Assembly: GCA_963847705.1 (NCBI GenBank)
Contig: CAWKBC010000038.1
Span: forward strand, 1-46,870
DNA: 46,870 nucleotides
Direction: 5' to 3'
Source of the DNA: an uncultured Pseudomonadota bacterium
GTDB taxonomy: Bacteria > Myxococcota_A > Polyangia > Fen-1088
How positions within the stretch are numbered: the first letter of the stretch is position 1; the number at the start of each line of letters is the position of its first letter. The notes below the pieces were generated by a model. It was not told where the DNA came from, did no database searches, and saw only the letters and a list, made by a program, of their open reading frames with translations. Below are positions 2,869-41,450 of this stretch, in pieces. The translations under genes were made by a program, and so were the position numbers.

Positions 2869-4214
2869 GTGGCGGGCTCTGCCGGCGTTTCTTCGGCGAG
2901 CGCGCGCGCCACCGCGTCGGCCAGCGTGCGGCGGCGGTCGGCCAGCCGCTGCGCCGTCTTGAAGTGCAGCGCCCGCAACGAGACGGCGCGCCAGCCGGCC
3001 ACGCCGTCTCGCACCAGCTCCTCGAAGCGGAGCGCCACGTAGCCGCCGGCGACGCCGAGCGCGAACGTCGGCAGCGCCCAGAGCGCGCCCCAGAGCCGGC
3101 CGGCGACGAGCGCCTCCGCCGTCCAGCCGACGATGAGGAACAACGTCCCGGCGAACAGCTTGACCGTGCTGAGGATGTCCTCGTCCTGGGTCACCCGGGG
3201 CGCGATCCACCCCGCGAAGCGGTAGGGAATCCAGCCCATGACCGCGCCCAGCGCCGCCAGCGGCGCGGCGACGACCAGCTTGGCGACGGCCGCGGCGAGC
3301 GTGCCGACACGCGGTGCGGTCAGCTCCAGCGCCCAGGGATCGCGAACCCCGAGCCGTCGGAGCGTCTGCCAGTAGCCGCGCACCTCGGCCACGATCGTCT
3401 CGAGGCGCGCCGGATCTCTGGCTCGCATCCGCGCGTAGGCGGCCGCCAGCTCGCGGGCCCGCCGGTGGCCCGCCGCCGGGTCGTTCGGATCGTCGCCGCT
3501 CTTCGGATCGCTGGTCCAGCGCGCCACCCGCGCGATCCCCGCCAGGAGCTCGCGCGATTCGGCCTGCAGCACGACCTCGTCGAGGCGCGCGCCGATCTCC
3601 TCGGTGAGCGCCGTGACCGCGGCGCGCTCGTCCTGGCGGTAGGCCGGGAGGCGAGGCGCGACCTCGATCGGCTCTCCCACCACCAGCAGCACCGAGGATC
3701 GAAAGGTGGTCTTGCGCTCATAGCTGAGACCGACCGGAACGACGACGACCCCGAGCCCGCCGTCATGCTCCGCCTCCGCCGAGAGCGCGATGCGCGCCGC
3801 GCCCGTCTTGAGCGGCCGCATCTCGGGATCGGAGTGGGAGACCCCCTCCGGGAACAGCGCCAGCACGCCGCCCGCCGCCAGCTCGGCCCGGCAGCGCGCG
3901 AAGCTGGCGTCGTTGCGAGAGGCGTCCTGCCCGCGCGCCCCCGACTCGTGGGCGCGATAGACGGGGATGCTGCCGAAGGCGTTCATCGCCAACCGGCCGA
4001 GCGGATTGCCGAAGAGCGTGCTCTTGGCCAAGAAGCGCGACGGCCGCCCCGTCGCCACCCGCAAGACGATGGGATCGAGAAGGCCGTTCGGGTGGTTGAG
4101 GACGAACACCAGCGGCTTGCCGCGCGGAATCCGCTGGTCGCCGTCGAGGGTCCGCGCCGGATAGTAGAGCCGCACCAGCGCCTCGCCCAACCAACGAACC
4201 AGCGCCGCGAGCAC
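2862..4214 (-). CDS. Lysophospholipid/glycerol-3-phosphate acyltransferase family protein with C-terminal TM helices
   Basis: NHPNGLLD (HX4D), FLAKSTLF, ALFPEG and LKTGAAR motifs. Start placed at GTG 4214 (VLAALVRW), 6 nt after a TATCAT -10-like hexamer. Confidence 0.88.
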   Translation of the reverse strand: MLAALVRWLGEALVRLYYPARTLDGDQRIPRGKPLVFVLNHPNGLLDPIVLRVATGRPSRFLAKSTLFGNPLGRLAMNAFGSIPVYRAHESGARGQDASRNDASFARCRAELAAGGVLALFPEGVSHSDPEMRPLKTGAARIALSAEAEHDGGLGVVVVPVGLSYERKTTFRSSVLLVVGEPIEVAPRLPAYRQDERAAVTALTEEIGARLDEVVLQAESRELLAGIARVARWTSDPKSGDDPNDPAAGHRRARELAAAYARMRARDPARLETIVAEVRGYWQTLRRLGVRDPWALELTAPRVGTLAAAVAKLVVAAPLAALGAVMGWIPYRFAGWIAPRVTQDEDILSTVKLFAGTLFLIVGWTAEALVAGRLWGALWALPTFALGVAGGYVALRFEELVRDGVAGWRAVSLRALHFKTAQRLADRRRTLADAVARALAEETPAEPATQ

Positions 4215-4327
4215 ACCCGAATGATACGTCAGCCCCGGGGCACCTCTCGTTGCAAAGCGTTCGCCCCCGCCACGGCGCTCCCGCAACCCCCGCGCGCTCG
4301 CATGGTACCCTCGACGGCGCGGGTTAA

Positions 4328-5332
4328 ATGCGTCTGACGAACCTGCGACGTGCACGCGCCAGCCTTTCCGCTCTCACGCTCGTGCTCTTGTTCACCGCGT
4401 CGGGCCAGCCAGCACACGGCGCCGCGCTGTCCGTCGACGCACCGGACTCGTGTGTCGATCCGGCGGCGCTGGCCGACGAGGTGAGCGACCTGATCGGCAA
4501 GCCGCTGGCCTCGGTCGCCGAGGTCGACTTTCGGATTCAGATCGCCAAGACGACGCGCCAGCGGTGGCGCCTGAAGCTGGAGACGATTGGGCTGCGCACC
4601 GCAGGGGTGGGCGAGCCGGCGGTCCGGGGCAGCCGCGAAATCGAAGGGGCGACCTGCGCCGAGCTGGCCGAGGCGGCGTCCGTGGCCATCGCGGTCTCGG
4701 TGCGATCGATCGCCGGCGAGGCCGGCCCGATCGAGCCGCAGCCGCAGCCAGCGCCGGCGATCCTGCCGCCGCCCTCACCGCCGGTCGGGGCGCCGCCCTC
4801 TTTGGAACGCAGCGGAGAAGGGACACCCTCCTGGCGTCCCGCCGTCGCGCTGGCGCTGACCACAGACACCGGCGCCCTCCCCAGCACCAGCATCGGCGTC
4901 GGACTGGCCGGGAGCGTCCAACACCGATCGCTGCAGCTCGGGTTGCTGGCCACCTGGTTCGGGTCGGAGGACGCCACCGGCGCGGACCACACGGGCGGCA
5001 CCTTTCAGCTCGCGGTCGGCGGCGCGCGCGCCTGTTTCGCCCCGCGCAGGGGGCGCTGGACGCCGCTTGCCTGCGGCGGGTTCGAGCTCGGACGCCTGAG
5101 CGGGACCGGACAGGGCGTCGCGCGCCCGGAGACGGGAGAGGCCCTCTGGAGAGCCCTGCGCGCCAATCTGGGCGTGACGATGGCGCTCGGCGGCAATACG
5201 GGGCTCTTGCTGACCGGCGGAGTGGCGGTCCCGCTGGCGCGCCCGGCCTTCGTGCTCGACGGAAGTGAGCTGGTCTACCGGCCGAGTCGCCTGGCGGGTC
5301 GGTTCACGGCCGGCCTCCAGATCGGATTTTGA
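4328..5332 (+). CDS. Exported protein: 2-Cys N-domain, Pro-rich linker, C-terminal beta-barrel-like domain (first gene of ECF cassette 1)
   Basis: Signal peptide, APDSC...GATCAELAEAASVAI domain, PQPQPAPAILPPPSPP linker, and alternating amphipathic strands ending AGLQIGF. Confidence 0.75.
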   Translation: MRLTNLRRARASLSALTLVLLFTASGQPAHGAALSVDAPDSCVDPAALADEVSDLIGKPLASVAEVDFRIQIAKTTRQRWRLKLETIGLRTAGVGEPAVRGSREIEGATCAELAEAASVAIAVSVRSIAGEAGPIEPQPQPAPAILPPPSPPVGAPPSLERSGEGTPSWRPAVALALTTDTGALPSTSIGVGLAGSVQHRSLQLGLLATWFGSEDATGADHTGGTFQLAVGGARACFAPRRGRWTPLACGGFELGRLSGTGQGVARPETGEALWRALRANLGVTMALGGNTGLLLTGGVAVPLARPAFVLDGSELVYRPSRLAGRFTAGLQIGF

Positions 5333-5359
5333 GACGGATTTTGAGCCAGCCTCATTTTT

Positions 5360-5393
5360 CCGAAACGGATTTGCCCCCGCCCGGAGACCCACC
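5360..5393 (+). promoter_or_regulatory. Putative autoregulatory ECF-sigma promoter upstream of the sigma gene
   Basis: ccgaaacggatttgcccccgcccggagacccacc matches 6681-6714 at 27/34 positions without gaps and ends 15 nt before the TTG start. Confidence 0.6.
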
Positions 5394-5408
5394 GGGAGGC
5401 GCGCTGTC

Positions 5409-5969
5409 TTGAAATCGGTCCCGCTCACCCCCGGCAAGCCGCCCCCAGGGCCGCGCGCGCAGCCTGAAGCCCCACAGAGCTTCGATGAGATCTACGACCG
5501 TTACTTTCCCTTCGTCTGGCGCTGCCTGCGCGGGATGGGCCTCGGCCCAGCCGCCCTGGACGACGCTGCCCAGGATGTCTTCCTGGTCGTGCACCGCCAG
5601 CTGGGCGGCTTCCGGGGCGAATCGAGCGCCCAGACCTGGCTGTACGGGATCGCCCGGCACGTGGCCTCCAACCACCAGCGGCGAGACCAGCGCAAACAGG
5701 CGCCGCTCGAGCCTCTGGTGTCCGAGCCCGCGCACCCCGAGCCCGGGCCGCTCGAACGGGCCGAAGACGCGGAAGCCGCAGCGTTCGTGGCGGCCTTCGT
5801 GGCAGGCCTCGACGACAAGAAGCGAGATCTCTTCATCCTCGCGGTGCTGGAAGAGATGACCATCCCCGAGGTGGCCGCCGCGCTGGCGATTCCGCTCAAC
5901 ACCGCCTACACGCGCCTCCGCAGCGTGCGGGCCGACTTCGAGCGCGCGCTCGGGAGCCGAAGGTCATGA
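5409..5969 (+). CDS. ECF-type RNA polymerase sigma-70 factor
   Basis: Region 2 (FDEIYDRY..DDAAQDVFL..FRGESS..TWLYGIA) and region 4 (EMTIPEVA..IPLNTAYTRL). TTG start with GGGAGG RBS. Confidence 0.92.
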   Translation: MKSVPLTPGKPPPGPRAQPEAPQSFDEIYDRYFPFVWRCLRGMGLGPAALDDAAQDVFLVVHRQLGGFRGESSAQTWLYGIARHVASNHQRRDQRKQAPLEPLVSEPAHPEPGPLERAEDAEAAAFVAAFVAGLDDKKRDLFILAVLEEMTIPEVAAALAIPLNTAYTRLRSVRADFERALGSRRS

Positions 5970-6736
5970 CCGGCGACGAGCGCGATCCGTCCGAGGTGCT
6001 GGCGCGGGCGCGGCGCGCCTGGTCGCCCGGCCAAGCCGACGCCGCGCGCGTGCGGCGTGCGCTCGGCGCGGCGCTGGCTGCCGACCCTTCTTCGGGCGGG
6101 GGCGCAGCGCCCGCCCGCCCGCCCGAGTCGGCGTCGGCGTCGAGTTGGACTTCGAGGTTCTTGGTCGCGGGCGCGATCGCGGCCGCGAGCGGAGGCGCCG
6201 GGTACTGGGCCGGTCATCGTGCGGGTAGGCGCGAGGGACGGCCGACCACTTCGATGCTCTCGCTTGAGGCTCCGAAGGCGGTGGCTCCCGCGCCGAGGCC
6301 GGCGCTCGCGCCGTCACCCGTTGCGGAGAGCCCGCCGCTGGCGATGCCGTCGGTCGTCCCCTCCCGTCACGACGCCCATGGCGCACGACGCGGCTCGGAG
6401 AGCCAAACACCCACCCAGACCGAATCCCTGGCCATCGAGGTCCGCGCGCTGCGCAACGCCGAGCGGGCGCTTCGCGATGGAACTCCAGGGCTGGCGCTGG
6501 CCTTCCTGCAGGAGCTGGATCGTCAGGTCCCGAACGGCAAGCTGGCCGAGGAGCGCGACGCGGCCAGCACGCTCGCCCGCTGCGCCCGCGGCGATCACCC
6601 CTTCGGCGTCGACCTGGCGGCGGAGTTCACCGAACACCACCCAGGGAGCGTCTACCGCGCCCGCGTCGAGCAGGCCTGTACCGAGACGGATTCGCCCCGC
6701 CTCGGAGACTCATCCCCGAGGAGGTCAGATCGATGA
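5966..6736 (+). CDS. Putative anti-sigma factor (single TM, Pro-rich linker, C-terminal TPR-like helical domain)
   Basis: ATGA overlap with the sigma gene, hydrophobic FLVAGAIAAASGGAGYW segment, and C-terminal LAIEVRALRNAERALRDG..ALAFL..PNGKLAEER helical pattern. Confidence 0.7.
   Translation: MTGDERDPSEVLARARRAWSPGQADAARVRRALGAALAADPSSGGGAAPARPPESASASSWTSRFLVAGAIAAASGGAGYWAGHRAGRREGRPTTSMLSLEAPKAVAPAPRPALAPSPVAESPPLAMPSVVPSRHDAHGARRGSESQTPTQTESLAIEVRALRNAERALRDGTPGLALAFLQELDRQVPNGKLAEERDAASTLARCARGDHPFGVDLAAEFTEHHPGSVYRARVEQACTETDSPRLGDSSPRRSDR
6681..6714 (+). promoter_or_regulatory. Second copy of the putative ECF promoter, upstream of the lipoprotein gene
   Basis: ccgagacggattcgccccgcctcggagactcatc, followed by GAGGAGG RBS and ATG 6733. 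Confidence 0.6.
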
Positions 6737-7569
6737 GAAACGAACGAACGCTGACTCTGGTGGCTCTGCTCTGCGGCGCCGGAGCGCCGCTGGCCTGCTC
6801 GGGCGGCGGGGCCGTCAACATCGGCAACACGAACGTGGCCGGGGCCCAGCTCTCCGACTATGCGGCCAGCTGGGACGGTTACGCCGAGGCTTACACTTTC
6901 AGGCCAGACGGCTCAGACCGGGTTCGTCTGGCGATCGATGCGAGCGGACAGGGGACGTTCCGGGTGGGAAATGCGACGACGCTGCTGTCACCCCCGACCG
7001 ATCCGAACGTCGGATATCCGCCCGGAATTTCGGCGCTCGGCGCGAATGACGGGCCGAGAGAGGACTTTCTGTACCCAATTCACGCGGCGAACGTTCAAGA
7101 GTCCCGGATTCAACTCGGAATCAACACAGAGGATCTCTTCGCGGCCTGGTGCCCTCTGCAGACACCCATTCCGTACTATGAGACCACCACGGTCAACGAT
7201 GCCGGTAGCTCGTACACGGTCACCGCGGCGAGCGACGCCGGAACTGTTTCCACTTCGTACAGTTGCGTGCCCAATCTGGGGGGGATGGAGCAGATCAACC
7301 CGGCCACCGGGACCCCGACGAATTGCACGGTCAACGAGCCCGACGGTTCGAGCGCTCCGGTCGATTGCGACAAGTTCTATCTGTGCACCATGGCGTTCGC
7401 CTGCACCTGCACCGCCAGCGGATGCACCATCCCCCCGATGCCGGCCGACGCGACTGCCGCCCAGTACCCGATCGAGCTCGACGGAGCGCTCGATACCACC
7501 GGAAAAATCCTGACCGGAACGCTGGCGCTCGGCGGTCAGCGCATCACCGTCCACCTGACCAAGCAGTAG
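6733..7569 (+). CDS. Cys-rich lipoprotein of unknown function
   Basis: Lipobox PLAC, C-terminal half with multiple Cys (CDKFYLC..FACTCTASGC), ATGA overlap and strong RBS. Confidence 0.78.
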   Translation: MRNERTLTLVALLCGAGAPLACSGGGAVNIGNTNVAGAQLSDYAASWDGYAEAYTFRPDGSDRVRLAIDASGQGTFRVGNATTLLSPPTDPNVGYPPGISALGANDGPREDFLYPIHAANVQESRIQLGINTEDLFAAWCPLQTPIPYYETTTVNDAGSSYTVTAASDAGTVSTSYSCVPNLGGMEQINPATGTPTNCTVNEPDGSSAPVDCDKFYLCTMAFACTCTASGCTIPPMPADATAAQYPIELDGALDTTGKILTGTLALGGQRITVHLTKQ

Positions 7570-7600
7570 CGACCGCCTCGCGACCGCCGAGCGGGGCGCG

Positions 7601-10600
7601 CTACGCCTCTGGGTGCGTGAGCAGCCGCCGCACCCAGAGGTCGGTCAGCTTTTCCTGGACGGTGTTCTGGCGGAGGCGGTCGGCCAGGTTCTTCCAGTCG
7701 ACGAAGTCCTGCGGCTGGTCCTGGTTCGAGCAGGAGAAGACGATCGTCTCCTTGCCAGTGGCGGGATCGATGTGGCGCTGCAGGCACTGCGCGCAGATCT
7801 CCTTCATCATGCACTGCATGGGCGAATTGATCGACGCGATGGCCACGTGCCCTGGACGGAAGTGCTGCGCCAGCACGCCGTGGCGCGCGTCCTTGACCGC
7901 CTTCATCATGCGATCGCTGCCGATGGCGATGACCCGGTGGCACTCGGGCAGCGGCACCAGAATCTCGCCCAGCTCGCCGCGTGCGTAGGCGCCCATGGCC
8001 TGGACGACGTTGCCGGAGAAGGCGCGATCCTGCGGGCGGCGCGGGTCGGGCAGCTCGCCGCCGTCGACGCTCCAGATGATCTGATCGGCGGCCGCCTCGA
8101 TCTCGTCGATCTTGTAGATGTCCTCGCGCTGGCGGTAAGCGGCGAAGTAGAGGACGCGGCTCCCCTGCGCCCGCAGCGCGCGGCCGATCGAGAACAGCAC
8201 GGCGTTGCCCAGGCCGCCGCCGGCCAGGACGACCGATTCGCCGGCCGGCGTCTCGGTGGGCGTGCCGGTGGGGCCCATGACGACCACCGGCTCGCCCGGC
8301 TGAAGGCTCATGCAGAGGCGCGAGCTGCCGCCCATCTCCAGGACGATCAACGACAGCAGCCCGGCTGGCTTGTCGACCCAGGCGCCGGTGAGCGCCAGCC
8401 CCTCCATGAGGAGGCGTGAGGTGTGGCTGCCGGCCATCTTGGCCAGCGCCTCGTAGTTCTGCAGGCGGAAGAACTGCCCCGGCTCGAAGTGACGGGCGGC
8501 GGCGGGCGCGCGCACGATCACCTCGACGATGGTCGGCGTCAGGCGATCGACACGAACGACCGTGGCGCGCCACTCGTCGTCGAGGCGCGCCGCGAACGCG
8601 TTCCAGGCCGCATCGCGCGCCGGCTGCGCGGCGGCGTCGAGCCCGGCGATCTCGTCGGCGAACAGCGCCTCGACGTGCGGCGCGCCGTCCTTGGCCGAGG
8701 CCATCGCGCGCACCACCGACCCGGCGTACACCGGGTGGTTGTCGCCGTAGTAGCTGACCGTGTGCCCGTCGCGGAGGTAACTGGTGAAGAAGCCGACGCC
8801 GCTGCCGGCGTCTTCCAGCTTGAGAGCGCCGTCGTCGCCGCGCACGGCCTTGAAGCTCTTGAAGGCCTTGGCGCGGTGATCGATCTCGAACGAGCCGGGG
8901 CGCTCGCGCTCGTAGGTGACGTTGGGCGAGGTGCCGGCGGCGACGAACAGGCTGCGCGCCGGCAGCGTCACCTGCTCGCCCGTCCCCTTGAGCTCGCCGT
9001 CGACCAGCGCGAGCCGCTCGAACTCCACCGCCTTCAGCGCGCCGCGCTCGTCGGGAACGCAGGCGAGCGGGGCCAGCTTCTCGACGAAGCGGACCCCTTC
9101 CTCGAAGAACTTGGTGATCTCCTCGTGGTTGAGGCGATAGGCCGGGCTGTCGGACATGTCGCGCCGGTAGACCAACGAGACGCCGCCCCACTTCTCCACC
9201 AGCGGCGCGAAGTTCGGCACCTCGCCGGCGGCCACCGCGCGCGTCCGCTCGGCCCGCACCGCGCGCCCGTGCTCCAGGAACTCGAGGGCGACCTCCCGCT
9301 CCTCGTGGTCGTAGGTGAGCTCCAGCGTCGCCGCGGCCTCGTGCCCCAGTGCCTCCCAGCGCTCCAGGAACTTCTCGACCTGGACCGGGTAGTAGGCGGC
9401 GGCCTCGGTGGTGGTGTCGATGCCGGTCAGCCCGCCGCCGATCACCAGCGCCGGCAGCCGGACCTGGAGGCTGGCCAGCGAATCGCGCTTGAACGCCCCC
9501 GACAGCTGCAGCGCCATCAGGAAGTCGGACGCCTTGCGCACGCCACGAATGAGGTTGTTCTTGACGTTGATGATGGTCGGCTTGCCGGCCCCCGCGGCGA
9601 TGCCGACGTGGTCGAACCCCATCGCGAACGCCTCGTCGGCGTCGACCGTGCCGCCGAAGCGGATGCCGCCGTACACCCGAAAGGTCGGGCGGCGCGCCAG
9701 GTTGAGGTGAAGCGCGGTGAGGAAGCTCTTGTCCCAGCGGACGGTGATGCCGTACTCGGCGACGCCCCCGAAGCCGGAGAGGCGCCGCTGGTCGAGCGGA
9801 GCCGCCAGCTCGTCCCAGCGCTCGACGGCGCGGGGAGGCCAGACGTCGGCGCCTATCAAATCAGCCGGCAACGGCTCGATCTTGAGCCCGTCGATCCCCA
9901 CCACGCCAAAACCGGCGTTGAGCAGGTGCTGCGACAGCGTCGAGCCGGCCGGCCCCATCCCCACCACCAGCACGTTCTTGCCGATGTACGGCCGCGCCAC
10001 TGGGCGCGCGCGGTTGAGCGGATTCCAGCGGGTCAAGAGGCCATAGATCTCGTAGCCCCAGCGCATGCCGAGCACGTCGGTGAGGACCCCCGTCTCGGCC
10101 TGCGGGATGTTGACCGGCTCCTGCTTCTGGAAGATGCAGGCCTTCATGCAGTCGTTGCAGATGCGATGGCCGGTGCCGGGCAACATCGGGTTGTCGATGA
10201 CCACCATGGCCAGCGCGGCGATCGAGTCGCCGTCGCGCCGCAGGACGTGCATCTCGCCGATCTTCTCCTTGAGCGGGCAGCCGCGCAGCGTGACGCCGAT
10301 GGGGTTCTTCTTCATCCCCCCCTGCTTGTCGTGCATCCCCTTCGAGCAGGAGTCCTTCTCCCGCTCGTGGCAGTACATGCAGTAGTCGGACTCCGACGCC
10401 ACCTCGCGCCGGGACATCCGCCCGTCGGTGAGGCCGAACCCGTCGCGCCGCCGCCGGTGCTCGGCCGGCCCCTCGGTGATGTTCGTCAGCTTCGGTTCCG
10501 GGCGCCGCAGCGGGACGAGATCTTCGAAGTCGACCGCGTGCGCGTGGCGAAATGAAACCCAGCTGGCGACCGCCTTGGCCGCCTCGGGCACGAACCGGTG

Positions 10601-37115: not shown

Positions 37116-38216
37116 GTGGCCGTGGCCCTCGCACCTGCCTACGCAATCGCGATCTTGATGACCGCGGGGCCCGACGACGGCTGCCCTTCGCCGCGCCAGC
37201 TGGCCGACGCCCTCTCGGCGCATTTGCCCGGGATGGTGCTGCCGTTTGGCCACGCCACCGGCCCGACCACGCTGCGCCTCGGGGTCGCGATCGACGCGGC
37301 CGGGGCGATGCGGCTCGATCTTTATGACCCGGAGGGGGGACCGCTCCTCCATCGCTGGCTCCCGCCGAGCGATCGCACGCACGCGGGTGACTGCCCGGCC
37401 CTGGCCGAGACGGCCGCGCTGATCGTGGAGCGCTACTGGCACGAGGTCGGTTACGACGTCCCGCTCGAAACCCCGAACGCCCCACCCAAACCACCGCAGC
37501 CGAAGGCGACAGCGCCTCCACCCCCAGCTCCGCCTCCACCTCCGCCACCGAAGGCCGCCCCACCTCCGCCGCCCAGACCTGCGCCGCCGCCGGCCCCTCC
37601 GCCGGTGGCCGAGAAGGTGAGCCCACCGCCGGAGCCCCAAGCTCGTCGGCCGCAGCCTCCGGCCGAACCCTTGCCGCCGCCACGGTGGTGGATCGGCGGC
37701 GGCGCGGAGGGCCTCCTGACCGCTTCGGGAGATCGCGCCGGCGCGGCCGTCCTGGCGATCACCCTCGAAGGCCTCGCCTTCGGGCGACGCCTGGGACTCC
37801 GGCTGTCGGCGGGCGCCGAGACCGGCGTCTCGGTTCCGGTTACGAGCGGCGGATGTGCACAACCAAAGGCGTGCAGCGCCGACGTGCTCCGGTTCCCGGC
37901 GCGGATGGGTGCCTACCTGCCGATCTCGCTCGGGGTCGGCCAGCTCGAGCCCGGAATCGGCGTCGACCTCGGCGCCATCGAGGTCACCTACCGGCACGGA
38001 TCGACCTCCCAGACGCACCTCGGCGTCACCCGCGGAATCGACGCCGCCCTCGGCTGGGCGCTGCCGCTGCCGCATCATATTTATATTCGGGCATTGGCTC
38101 AGGCCGTGACGGAGGTCCCCTACCACGTCGTAACTGCCTCTAACGACACGGCAATCTTCACTACTCCCAGTTTCCGCTTCGTGCTTGGGATAGAATTGGG
38201 CGTTTGGTTTCCCTGA
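37116..38216 (+). CDS. Exported protein: 2-Cys N-domain, Pro-rich linker, beta-barrel-like C-domain (first gene of ECF cassette 2)
   Basis: GPDDGCPS..GDCPALAETAALIV domain, long Pro tract and amphipathic strands ending LGIELGVWFP. Confidence 0.75.
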   Translation: MAVALAPAYAIAILMTAGPDDGCPSPRQLADALSAHLPGMVLPFGHATGPTTLRLGVAIDAAGAMRLDLYDPEGGPLLHRWLPPSDRTHAGDCPALAETAALIVERYWHEVGYDVPLETPNAPPKPPQPKATAPPPPAPPPPPPPKAAPPPPPRPAPPPAPPPVAEKVSPPPEPQARRPQPPAEPLPPPRWWIGGGAEGLLTASGDRAGAAVLAITLEGLAFGRRLGLRLSAGAETGVSVPVTSGGCAQPKACSADVLRFPARMGAYLPISLGVGQLEPGIGVDLGAIEVTYRHGSTSQTHLGVTRGIDAALGWALPLPHHIYIRALAQAVTEVPYHVVTASNDTAIFTTPSFRFVLGIELGVWFP

Positions 38217-38244
38217 TGAAGCGAAACCGAGTGGGTCACTAATC

Positions 38245-38841
38245 ATGGCAGAGGGTCCCGTGAACACGCCTGGCCTGATGCGCGCCGCTCCGAGCGGTGG
38301 AAGCTTGACCGCCGACCTGGACATGGTGGCGCGGTGCCGCCGTGGCGATGGGGTCGCGTGGCGCGGTCTCTATGACCGCTACGCGCCGATCGTCTATCGG
38401 TTCCTTTCGGCCTTCGGCGTGCCGAACGAGGATCGGGAGGACGCCTGTCAGGAGGTGTTCGTCGCCATCTACCGGAGCCTGGCCCGCTTCCGGGGTGAGG
38501 CGCGGCTCTCGACCTGGATCTATCGGATCGCGGCCCGCCACGCCGGCCGCATCTCTCGCCGCCGCCGCGTGCGGGGCCTCCTGTCGACGCTGCTCCTGCG
38601 GGAGCCGCCGCCCCCTCCGGCGCCGGATCCTTCGGAGCGCAGCGAGCGGCTGCAGCTCCTCGACGAGCTGGTGAGCAAGCTGTCGCCCAAGAAGCGGCTG
38701 GTGCTGGTCCTGTTCGAGATCGAGGGGGTCCCCATCGAGGAGGTCGCCAAGATCGCGGGCTGCCCGGAGAACACCGCCTGGTCGCGGCTGCACTACGCGC
38801 GCGCCGAGCTGGTGGCGATGGCCAAGAAGAGGGTGCGGTGA
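38245..38841 (+). CDS. ECF-type RNA polymerase sigma-70 factor
   Basis: LYDRY..EDACQEVF..FRGEARLSTWIYRIA and LFEIEG..EEVA..PENTAWSRLHYAR motifs. Confidence 0.94.
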   Translation: MAEGPVNTPGLMRAAPSGGSLTADLDMVARCRRGDGVAWRGLYDRYAPIVYRFLSAFGVPNEDREDACQEVFVAIYRSLARFRGEARLSTWIYRIAARHAGRISRRRRVRGLLSTLLLREPPPPPAPDPSERSERLQLLDELVSKLSPKKRLVLVLFEIEGVPIEEVAKIAGCPENTAWSRLHYARAELVAMAKKRVR

Positions 38842-40319
38842 CGCCGCAGCACCGCTGGCCCGACGGCCCGGACGAGGTCTCGGCCGAGCTGCGGCGCGCC
38901 CTGGACGAGGCAGCGCTGCGCGGCCCCGACGACATGACCCTGCGGCGGGGGTGGAGCGCGGTCGCCGTGCCGGTGCAGCCTGCGCGCACGCGGCGCGGGT
39001 TCTGGTTTGCCGGCGGCGTGGCGACGACCGCCGCGCTGGTGCTGGCCGGATCGTTCTGGCTCTGGCCGCACCCGACGGAGCTGGCCGCAGGGGGACACCT
39101 GAAGGCGCCCGCCAGGAGCGAGAGCCCCATCGCGCCGGGAGCGCGCCGGCTGACGCTCGAAGGGGGCGTCGAGGCGGTGCTCGGCCGATCGAGCGTCATG
39201 CGGCTGGAGGACGGCGCGCCGCGGATCGAGGTGGGCGAGGTCCGGTTCAGCGTGCCGCACCGCCAGCCTGGGCACCCGTTCGTCGTCCGCGCCGAGGGCT
39301 ATCGCGTGGTCGTCGTCGGCACCCGGTTCGGCATCAACGTCGACGGCAAGAGCGACAGCGTCGATGGCAAAAGCGACGGCAGGAGCGACGGCAAGGCCGA
39401 CAGCAAGCCGGAGGGGACCAAGGCGGTGGCGGTCGACGTCGACGAAGGGATCGTCGAGGTCTGGGACGCGGCCACCCAGCGCCGTCTGGCGCGGCTCACC
39501 CCCGGCGAGAGCTGGCAGAGCCCCGAGGTCGCCGCCCGGGCGCCGTCCGGGCCTGCCGAGGTCGAGCCGACGCCCGCGTCCGGCTGGCCGGCGCCGACGC
39601 TCTCGACGCCGCCGCGCACTCTTCGACACTCGGGCAAGCATCCGGGAGCCCGCAGCTTGGCGCTCGCCTCACCGGGTGAGACCACGACGACCAGCGACCG
39701 CCTGCCGAACCCGGCCGAAGCGCCCACCGCCGAGTCGGCGGCCGCCCGCGCAGCGCTCGCTTCGGGGGACGCGCCGCGCGCGCTGCAGCTTTACCGCGCG
39801 CTGGCGCAGGGGACCGGCCCTTCGGCCGAGAACGCCTCCTACGAAATCGGGAAGGTTCTGAACGAGAAGCTCGGGCAGCCTGCCAACGCGGTGGCCGCCT
39901 GGCGGCACTACCGGACGGCAAACCCCGACGGGCTTCTGCGCGCCGAGGCGGACGTGTCGATCATCGAGACGCTCGCCCGCACCGGCGACACCGACGAGGC
40001 GCTGTCGGAGGCGAACGACTTCCTGCGGCGCCGCCCCGACAGCGAGCGGCGCGCCGAGATCGCGCGGCTGGCCGGCGATCTCTACCGAGCGCGGGGCGAC
40101 TGTCACCGCGCCCTCGCGGCTTACCAGATCACGCTGGGGGCTTCGCGCCCCCGCGACGCCGTCGAGGCCGCCACCTTCCATCGCGCGGCTTGCCTGGTCC
40201 ATCTCGGCGATGCGGGCGGCGCCGACGCCGCGCGGGCCTACCTGCGCGCCTACCCGAGCGGAAAGTTCCGTGGCGAGGCGGCGGCGCTGGCGGGCGGCGG
40301 TTCCGCGCTGCATCCGTAG
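38838..40319 (+). CDS. Anti-sigma factor candidate with FecR domain and C-terminal TPR repeats
   Basis: GTGA overlap with the sigma gene, single TM, FecR pattern GEVRFSV..PFVV..VVVGTRF..V.V.EG.VEV, and TPRs ending YLRAYPSGKF. Confidence 0.85.
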   Translation: MTPQHRWPDGPDEVSAELRRALDEAALRGPDDMTLRRGWSAVAVPVQPARTRRGFWFAGGVATTAALVLAGSFWLWPHPTELAAGGHLKAPARSESPIAPGARRLTLEGGVEAVLGRSSVMRLEDGAPRIEVGEVRFSVPHRQPGHPFVVRAEGYRVVVVGTRFGINVDGKSDSVDGKSDGRSDGKADSKPEGTKAVAVDVDEGIVEVWDAATQRRLARLTPGESWQSPEVAARAPSGPAEVEPTPASGWPAPTLSTPPRTLRHSGKHPGARSLALASPGETTTTSDRLPNPAEAPTAESAAARAALASGDAPRALQLYRALAQGTGPSAENASYEIGKVLNEKLGQPANAVAAWRHYRTANPDGLLRAEADVSIIETLARTGDTDEALSEANDFLRRRPDSERRAEIARLAGDLYRARGDCHRALAAYQITLGASRPRDAVEAATFHRAACLVHLGDAGGADAARAYLRAYPSGKFRGEAAALAGGGSALHP

Positions 40320-40325
40320 GCGGCC

Positions 40326-41450
40326 GTGACGCGGCGGATCTCGCTCGCCTGCGCGCTGCTGGCCATCTTCCTGGGCGCCTGCCAGCAGACACTGGTGCTC
40401 GACGACCTCGCCGACGCCGGGCGACGCGGCACCGGAGGAACCGGCGGAACCGGCGGAACCGGCGGAACCGGAGGAACCGGCGGAACCGGCGGCAGTCCGA
40501 CCGACGCCGGTTCGAGCGACGCGCACTGCCAGGTGCCCCCCGTCAGCTTCACGCCCGACACCCCACAGGTGATTGTGGTCCTCGATCGCTCCTCGATGAC
40601 GACCCAGATGCCGTTCGGATCCCAGGACACCGAATTCACCGCGGCTGCGGCGGACCTCAGCGCCGAGGTCTCGAGTTACCAGGCGAGCAACGGGCAAGGG
40701 CGCGCCACCAAGCCGCCGATCAGCTTTTCGTTCCTGGACTTCCCCGACAGCGCCTCCGACTGCAACGCCGCGGTCGGCTGCTGCGCGAGCGACGTCATGT
40801 CGACACCCAACAGCCAGGCTTTCCAGAACGCGGTCTACTACGCCTGCGGCGCACCCAACGCCTGCGTATCGTCGAACAACCGCCCGATCGCCGCGGCGCT
40901 CACCACCGCCTACGACGCTTTCAACCAGGCGAGCGGCCCGCAGTCCGGCCAGCGGTTCGTGCTGCTGGTGACCGGAGGTCCGCCCAGCGGCCAATGCTTG
41001 ACCCTCGGCGACTGTCAGAGCGCCATCAACGAGGTCGACTCCCTCTTCAAGAAGCTCGACGTGACGACCTACATCGTCGGAATGGGTGACCAGACGAACG
41101 ACAGCTGCCTGCAGGCGATGGCCAACGACGAGGGGTCGGCGCAGTTCTACAGTGCGGCGAGCACGCCCAACGATCTCGTCAGCGCGCTCGAAGCAATCAC
41201 CGGCAGCATCGCCGCATCAGCCTGCCGCTTGACGCTGTCGTCGGGGACCATCTCGGCGAGCCAGCTGGCGGTTCAGTTCCAGGGGACGCCGGTCCTGCCG
41301 GACTTCAAGAACGGCTGGTCCTTCGACGACGGCGGCGGCACGCCGCGCCTCACCCTGCACGGCAGCGCCTGCCAGAGCTTCATCCAGAACTATCCCTTTG
41401 GCCTGCAGATCTCCGACGGTTGCGTCTCGGATCACTTCCCCAATCCCTGA
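40326..41450 (+). CDS. Cys-rich lipoprotein with VWA-like domain
   Basis: Lipobox LGAC, (TGG)7 linker, MIDAS-like VVLDRSSM, P..AAL, VLLVTGG and TYIVGMG. C-terminal NGWS..LHGSAC module. Confidence 0.8.
   Translation: MTRRISLACALLAIFLGACQQTLVLDDLADAGRRGTGGTGGTGGTGGTGGTGGTGGSPTDAGSSDAHCQVPPVSFTPDTPQVIVVLDRSSMTTQMPFGSQDTEFTAAAADLSAEVSSYQASNGQGRATKPPISFSFLDFPDSASDCNAAVGCCASDVMSTPNSQAFQNAVYYACGAPNACVSSNNRPIAAALTTAYDAFNQASGPQSGQRFVLLVTGGPPSGQCLTLGDCQSAINEVDSLFKKLDVTTYIVGMGDQTNDSCLQAMANDEGSAQFYSAASTPNDLVSALEAITGSIAASACRLTLSSGTISASQLAVQFQGTPVLPDFKNGWSFDDGGGTPRLTLHGSACQSFIQNYPFGLQISDGCVSDHFPNP
40431..40493 (+). repeat. 9-bp coding VNTR, 7 copies, encoding (TGG)n
   Basis: accgg(a/c)gga repeated seven times. 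Confidence 0.9.

Follow-up and report, generated by a model that had tools for sequence, protein, structure and literature searches.

In Myxococcus xanthus, the ECF sigma factors CarQ and DdvS are each described as paired with a membrane anti-sigma factor (CarR and DdvA) and as acting at their own promoter and at similar promoters of target genes (excerpts of PMC8156234 and PMC11506125). In excerpted accounts of autoregulated ECF promoters (PMC7826278, 10.1101/2020.06.23.168245), a bipartite motif with a variable spacer of fixed length lies immediately upstream of the sigma gene, and its bases are tied to sigma residues at the Arg171 and Asn84 positions; mutagenesis, as reported in the extract of 10.1101/2020.06.23.168245, assigns G(-31) to Tyr171, G(-12) to Asn84 and C(-13)G(-12) to Asp84. 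In the excerpt of PMC3397946 the Tt-RpoE1 promoter is given as tGTTAC-N16-CGTC. Myxobacteria encode dozens of ECF sigma factors whose promoters and targets are mostly uncharted, and the groups ECF210, ECF216, ECF220 and ECF267, all myxobacterial, are described without a conserved promoter motif in the excerpted supplement of PMC7826278. The locus analysed here, cassette 1, resembles CarQ/CarR and DdvS/DdvA in its pairing of an ECF sigma with a putative anti-sigma factor and in its predicted own and target promoters, and resembles the autoregulated ECF promoters in both the form of its upstream motif and the ties of its bases to these two sigma positions.

Cassette 1 lies in a 46,870-nucleotide stretch of DNA (the window) from a 6.1-Mb, 69% GC, 84.7% complete genome, whose closest named relatives are Polyangia and Myxococcales assemblies. 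It consists of four genes on the + strand (4328-5332, 5409-5969, 5966-6736 and 6733-7569) in an order that recurs across the genus; the last three, encoding the sigma factor, a putative anti-sigma factor and a lipoprotein, are linked by ATGA overlaps. The sigma gene (5409..5969, 186 aa, TTG start) matches Pfam Sigma70_r2 (residues 28-95) and r4_2 (131-171) as well as TIGR02937 above cut-off and has no r3 match, as in ECF (group 4) sigma factors. In an alignment to 1or7_A, its Tyr167 and Asn88 fall on Arg171 and Asn84 of RpoE. No Pfam family was found for the three other genes, and their named homologues are labelled hypothetical.

Position and layout suggest that the product of 5966..6736 (256 aa) is an anti-sigma factor: a conserved N-terminal part is followed by a weakly hydrophobic segment (65-83, peak hydropathy 1.21), a Pro-rich linker, a TPR-like C-terminal domain and a tail encoded by a predicted promoter. 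Leads to BamD/YfiO and TPR_14 were weak and below cut-off, and its profile found no match among solved structures. The hydropathy peak lies at 45-90 in 96 of 108 homologues and reaches at least 1.2 in 88 and at least 1.6 in 3; the candidate membrane segment is weak. The last gene (6733..7569, 278 aa), the predicted target, encodes a Cys-rich lipoprotein with a nearly invariant Cys22 and an atypical lipobox (Pro at -3); its structure model is confident and has no structural match (none in Foldseek at E 0.001, and Atlas matches all <0.9). The first gene (4328..5332), upstream of the sigma gene and devoid of a motif copy in the profile scan described below, encodes a predicted outer-membrane protein, modelled (pLDDT 82.7) with a TolB-N-like alpha/beta domain (~30-131), a Pro linker, an 8-stranded barrel (170-333) and a final Phe. 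Foldseek matched this model to OmpA, NspA, OmpW, Ail and TolB. The word TAAGAT stands 6-11 nt before a barrel-gene start codon in 9 of the 16 orthologues that could be anchored (3 of 19 loci could not; sites in L008, L009, L012-L014, L032, L033 and L035), and the source genome carries a variant (window ~4315-4335). It resembles a housekeeping -10 element and may give a leaderless or near-leaderless transcript, which would suit a standing barrel sensor.

The cassette contains two copies of a 34-bp sequence on the + strand. Copy 1 (5360..5393) precedes the sigma gene, and copy 2 (6681..6714) falls within the last 18 codons of the putative anti-sigma gene. An earlier note on this DNA had counted 27/34 identities without gaps, had placed the copies 15 nt before the sigma TTG (5409) and 18 nt before the lipoprotein ATG (6733), and had put copy 2 inside the anti-sigma coding tail (ORF 5966-6736); all of this is correct. 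Its reading of the conserved blocks as -35/-10-like elements is about right, but the 9-nt spacing that it gave is not, since ACGGATT and CGGAGAC are separated by 10 nt in both copies. In the register used here, ACGGAT (5365-5370 in copy 1, 6686-6691 in copy 2) is followed after a 12-nt gap by GGAGAC (5383-5388 and 6704-6709), with a conserved A at 5391 in copy 1; the -12 base is the second G of GGAGAC (5384), and the predicted transcription starts lie at ~5396 and ~6717. Each copy is followed by a Shine-Dalgarno-like sequence on the same strand: GGGAGG (5394..5399), 9 nt before the sigma TTG, where AGG and the TTG start recur in orthologues, and GAGGAGG (6718..6724) before the lipoprotein ATG, where GGAGG recurs.

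How unusual is such a pair? The rest of the 6.1-Mb genome holds no better match than 24/34 to copy 1 and 23/34 to copy 2. Ungapped pairs with at least 27/34 identities arose by chance in 59 of 400 random 3.3-kb tiles (14.75%), and in 18 of 20000 trials with paired 100-nt windows 1321 nt apart. The identity taken alone is modest evidence, and the pair owes its significance to its position before two starts and to its conservation. It was not among the 20 largest families that a generic repeat finder returned in this GC-rich region, and neither a sigma-70 promoter nor a terminator was found in 4100-7800. At the barrel gene stop, a tandem duplication of ~12 nt (5324-5346) creates an extra first-block-like word without a second block; this duplication is missing from L002 and L003.

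We searched 20 orthologous loci (sigma identity 58-99%) for ACGGAT and GGAGAC 12 nt apart with at least 10/12 letters matched. The upstream bipartite motif with its variable spacer, as in an autoregulated ECF promoter, was kept in 19/20 loci (it is degenerate in L013), the gap length being imposed by the search itself; of the 18 loci whose sequence covers the position of copy 2, 17 kept it, L038 stopping at a contig end. In the upstream copy, block columns carry 1.1-2.3 bits of information (one 0.6) and spacer columns 0-0.6. When 26 genomes of the genus were scanned with an exact pattern, 11 of them held 18 sites in all, and the reversed control gave no match. The sites are located at cassettes of the cassette 1 type; an extra site in genome G024 is copy 2 of a cassette divided between two contigs, and the letters of the G041 site are identical to copy 2 of L036. 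We also built a profile from 35 sites of other genomes, leaving the source genome out, and it scored the two copies at 34.1 and 30.9 bits. The next site in the source genome (C21:307037, 20.1 bits) was set aside because it is part of an ORF and the encoded protein accounts for its letters; this ORF (C21 ~306900-307400, - strand) resembles a gene for a Cap15-type beta-barrel effector of CBASS defence. Two checks that the earlier note had proposed, conservation in orthologues and a genome scan, thus came out in its favour, the only two strong sites of the 84.7%-complete genome being those of cassette 1. The predicted regulon is therefore cassette 1 alone, within the assembled sequence.

Because the motif stands before both the sigma and the lipoprotein genes and is kept in relatives, it is likely the sigma factor's own promoter. 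We conclude, with a probability of roughly 0.87 and from comparative evidence, that copy 1 is probably an autoregulated ECF promoter and copy 2 a second promoter for the lipoprotein gene.

Does the adjacent sigma factor read these sites? Across the family, the motif consists of TGACGGA or AACGGAT, followed by GGAGAC, CCAAAC, GGACTA and others. Out of 148 sigmas, the 102 with less than 60% identity were used to compare motif letters with sigma residues. Upstream, the word [GA]ACGGA occurs for 34 of the 60 that carry Tyr at the position of RpoE Arg171 and for 4 of the 42 that do not; within the sigma gene itself it occurs in 7/94. When the residue at the 84 position is acidic (Asp/Glu), the second block is CCA in 10/12 cases, versus 0/22 for the others; Asn sigmas have G at the -12 position in 5/7, a weak result at 69% GC. 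In cassette 1, Tyr167 and Asn88 and the motif agree with the published pairs Tyr with G(-31) and Asn84 with G(-12). The pair Asp with C(-13)G(-12) does not hold in the Asp/Glu relatives, which mostly have CCA instead; this concerns the code family-wide and not the cassette 1 sigma. Since the published code is only half borne out, the promoter register is uncertain by ~2 nt, and the presumed -31 G and the -12 G lie 1-2 nt closer together here than they do in those relatives. The covariation supports recognition by the adjacent sigma, although the sigmas compared include kin and are not independent, and we infer recognition of the ACGG block by region 4.2 (Tyr167) and of the G at -12 by region 2.4 (Asn88).

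We compared upstream with downstream regions across non-orthologous cassettes. Both windows were present for 95 of 136 sigma loci (from the source genome, G034 and others); these 95 formed 49 clusters at 55% identity. In a motif-free test, the cassette's own downstream region was the best match for 9/49 upstream regions (expected ~1; 0 of 100000 permutations) and among the top 3 for 12/49 (expected ~3), leaving 37/49 outside the top 3; from the source genome, 2/22 ranked first, cassette 1 and C29:74475. When cassettes were anchored on the first block, 31/95 had the word on both sides and 17 were left below 62% identity, mis-anchored rows included. In these 17, the second block agreed within cassettes (5.98 vs -0.41; 0 of 50000) and the spacer did not pair (-1.02 vs -0.57; p 0.74), which argues against a duplication remnant, in which the spacer would be common too. 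These tests were devised after inspection of the data, so a fresh set was drawn from the phylum: 13/161 genomes matched and gave 14 new loci, 12 of them usable and related to each other. Of these, 3/12 ranked first among 61 (p 0.016) and 9/12 did not. Kin among the cassettes are not independent, and p values are accordingly overstated. As far as these sequences indicate, some members of the family have twin promoters and others do not.

These data bear on the strongest alternative, that the sites are promoters read by another factor, be it an ECF sigma paralogue that shares the first-block residues, a repressor or an activator. The genome encodes dozens of ECF-like sigmas, the ACGG first block is family-wide, and several paralogues in this genome also carry Tyr at the equivalent position. 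Against this, the second block pairs within cassettes and varies with the residue that the neighbouring sigma carries, strong sites are confined to cassette 1, and the closest paralogue in the genome (C29, 41% identity) has a different second block. We consider another reader improbable and retain control by the cassette's own sigma.

Several related loci deserve mention. Cassette 2 in the same window (37116-41450) comprises a barrel-like gene, an ECF sigma, a longer putative anti-sigma (493 aa) whose end is TPR/YbgF-like, and a lipoprotein; the promoter-like word on its upstream side lies across the stop of the barrel-like gene, and a paired downstream copy was not found (rank 37 of 49). C29:74475 (- strand) carries a paired motif of another type, with first block GAAACC/GTAACC and second block GACAC, and its sigma has Arg at the 171 position, in agreement with the published Arg to C(-31) rule. 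The 9.6-Mb genome G034 (L056-L088) encodes at least 33 related sigmas, many with a common first block and distinct paired second blocks, a set ready-made for an orthogonality test. Tandem sigma/anti-sigma pairs occur at C1:178099 and 180581 and at C27:349979 and 351299, where the upstream region of the second sigma follows the first anti-sigma; the C1 and C27 loci look like duplicates of one another. Finally, extra copies of the lipoprotein gene in relatives (L035 ~7330-7390, L034 ~2070-2130) lack the cassette 1 motif and bear a TGACCA-type word like that upstream of another ECF sigma of the source genome (C32:169456), hinting that they may be under a different sigma.

What constrains copy 2, which overlaps a coding sequence? 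The second alternative holds that it is kept as a functional protein tail and resembles copy 1 by chance or as what is left of a duplication. In favour of such a tail, 104/120 anti-sigma homologues end in Thr-Asp-x4-Gly-Asp, with no motif in another frame in that protein set; GAT is not rare, making up 36/84 Asp codons elsewhere in the anti-sigma genes; and some 15% of random tiles contain a 27/34 pair. Against it, the codon after Gly-Asp is TCA in 10, TGA in 4 and ACA in 1 of 15 loci, so that the third base is constant while the residue varies or gives way to a stop, and TCA accounts for 2% of Ser codons in 11 window genes. Of 25 loci (6 doubtfully anchored rows excluded), 10 have the downstream copy in frame and 9 use it as the stop codon; in 5 it follows the stop, and in 1 it lies in another frame. 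These four placements of copy 2 among relatives argue that the constraint acts on DNA, and the unpaired spacers speak against a remnant. On the upstream side, a long open frame, most often that of the barrel gene, ends at the TGA of the family word in 13/14 cases. An origin of the anti-sigma tail by simple loss of a TGA stop was considered and dropped, as the stop frame differs from the Thr-Asp frame. The sequence comparison thus largely refutes a protein constraint, to which we give very little probability, and the tail is best read as a by-product of the predicted promoter and ribosome site. The least probable alternative makes the repeat an RNA element or a recombination site on either side of a mobile module of sigma and anti-sigma genes: the copies do bracket exactly these two genes, but they fold no better than shuffles (z -0.49 and -0.04), the two blocks are fixed while the middle is free to vary, the same order of four genes is found across the genus, and block letters covary with residues of the sigma. 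No locus with barrel and lipoprotein genes brought together over one copy appeared among those compared, although retrieval by the sigma gene would have missed such a case.

How would a circuit with two sigma-dependent promoters work? Released sigma would fire both predicted promoters. The first would drive the sigma and putative anti-sigma genes, a positive feedback that the co-translated anti-sigma would restrain; the second would lift the lipoprotein above the regulators. Transcripts would start near 5396 and 6717, with an uncertainty of ~2 nt; the first predicted start falls on the Shine-Dalgarno sequence itself. As the genes overlap by ATGA and no terminator was found, the first promoter should also read into the lipoprotein gene, making the second an added boost. 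The proposal of the earlier note that the sigma drives the lipoprotein separately calls for this caveat. The barrel could be made from a housekeeping promoter and serve as a surface sensor, its periplasmic domain passing the signal on to the TPR-like domain of the putative anti-sigma; we put the odds of this proposal at about even.

Do other cassettes share such a cargo? A lipobox-like gene follows copy 2 in 23 of 28 paired cassettes, which were hand-picked; the script favoured lipobox starts and missed cassette 1's own atypical lipobox. With a stricter caller, Cys-x(3-8)-[ILV]-Gly was found after the lipid cysteine in 22/23 cargo proteins of paired cassettes and 8/12 of unpaired ones, versus 22/232 lipoprotein-like ORFs of the genome; this caller gave no lipoprotein for 3 paired and 27 unpaired cassettes, and the pattern was defined after the sequences were inspected. 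The pattern, at window 6796-6828 and in the cargo genes of L037-L106, suggests a common docking or export signal in otherwise unrelated cargo. It is possible, though less likely than not, that Myxococcota hold a large family of self-contained trans-envelope circuits made of a barrel sensor, an ECF sigma, a TPR anti-sigma and a cargo lipoprotein. Their common first block would often lie over upstream stop codons, cassette-specific second blocks set by one sigma residue would insulate them, and unrelated cargo would use Cys-x(3-8)-[ILV]-Gly to dock on either the barrel or the TPR domain and so complete a loop of feedback or surface display. If this family-wide reading is true, the circuits would form a two-piece counterpart of Bacteroides Dma and a natural library of orthogonal sigma-promoter pairs.

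The core claim, an ECF sigma that drives itself and a neighbouring gene, is ordinary biology. Setting the upstream against the downstream copy within a cassette gives, with no clustering step, both a promoter and a target for an individual sigma, which makes regulons directly testable. It also provides matched sigma-promoter pairs for tests of the recognition code, to which Asp with CC is one apparent exception, and it points to an uncharacterised signalling route from barrel to anti-sigma.

How does cassette 1 compare with described systems? Searches of the open-access literature gave no account of the motif or of the cassette, and the excerpted supplement text of PMC7826278 contains no match to GACGG, TGACG, CGGAT or GGAGAC. 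The groups ECF210, ECF216, ECF220 and ECF267, compared by description in that excerpt, are Myxococcota ECFs like the cassette 1 sigma, some with membrane or TPR anti-sigma candidates at +1. ECF267 is described there with FecR-like anti-sigmas (fused to TPRs) and kinases and ECF220 with C-terminal sigma extensions. In contrast, no FecR match was found in the cassette 1 protein or in 108 aligned members, and the cassette 1 sigma ends 5 residues past the sigma profile.

Cell-surface signalling by FecI/FecR/FecA also unites an outer-membrane protein, an anti-sigma and an ECF sigma in one cassette. Cassette 1 differs in lacking a TonB-dependent receptor and a FecR domain, and its barrel is an 8-stranded model of the OmpA/NspA/OmpW kind. 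Its layout resembles that of Dma1/Das1 of Bacteroides thetaiotaomicron, in which, in the excerpt of PMC10927553, an 8-stranded outer-membrane barrel is joined by a disordered tether to an inner-membrane anti-sigma that acts with an ECF sigma. Dma1, however, is described there as one polypeptide that pairs with ECF21 and is restricted to Bacteroidota, whereas in cassette 1 the barrel with its TolB-N-like domain and the anti-sigma with its TPR-like domain are separate ORFs flanking the sigma gene, and their contact is putative.

Among the M. xanthus systems (PMC8156234 and PMC11506125, as excerpted), DdvA has periplasmic TPRs, a likeness to the TPR-like domain of the putative anti-sigma, and CarR, unlike it, has six membrane helices. 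DdvA further combines a zinc-binding anti-sigma domain with a TPR-CHAT region of ~900 residues, whereas the cassette 1 protein, at 256 aa, has no His or Cys in its first 60 residues and no CHAT match. An upstream barrel gene is not described for CarQ/CarR or DdvS/DdvA in these excerpts, and cassette 1 holds both predicted promoters within four genes. Compared with autoregulated ECF promoters, it has a second copy of the motif at the end of the anti-sigma gene. By analogy with CarQ and DdvS (PMC8156234, PMC11506125, in the same excerpts), cassette 1 would thus combine an autoregulated ECF promoter with a single additional promoter for a target gene.
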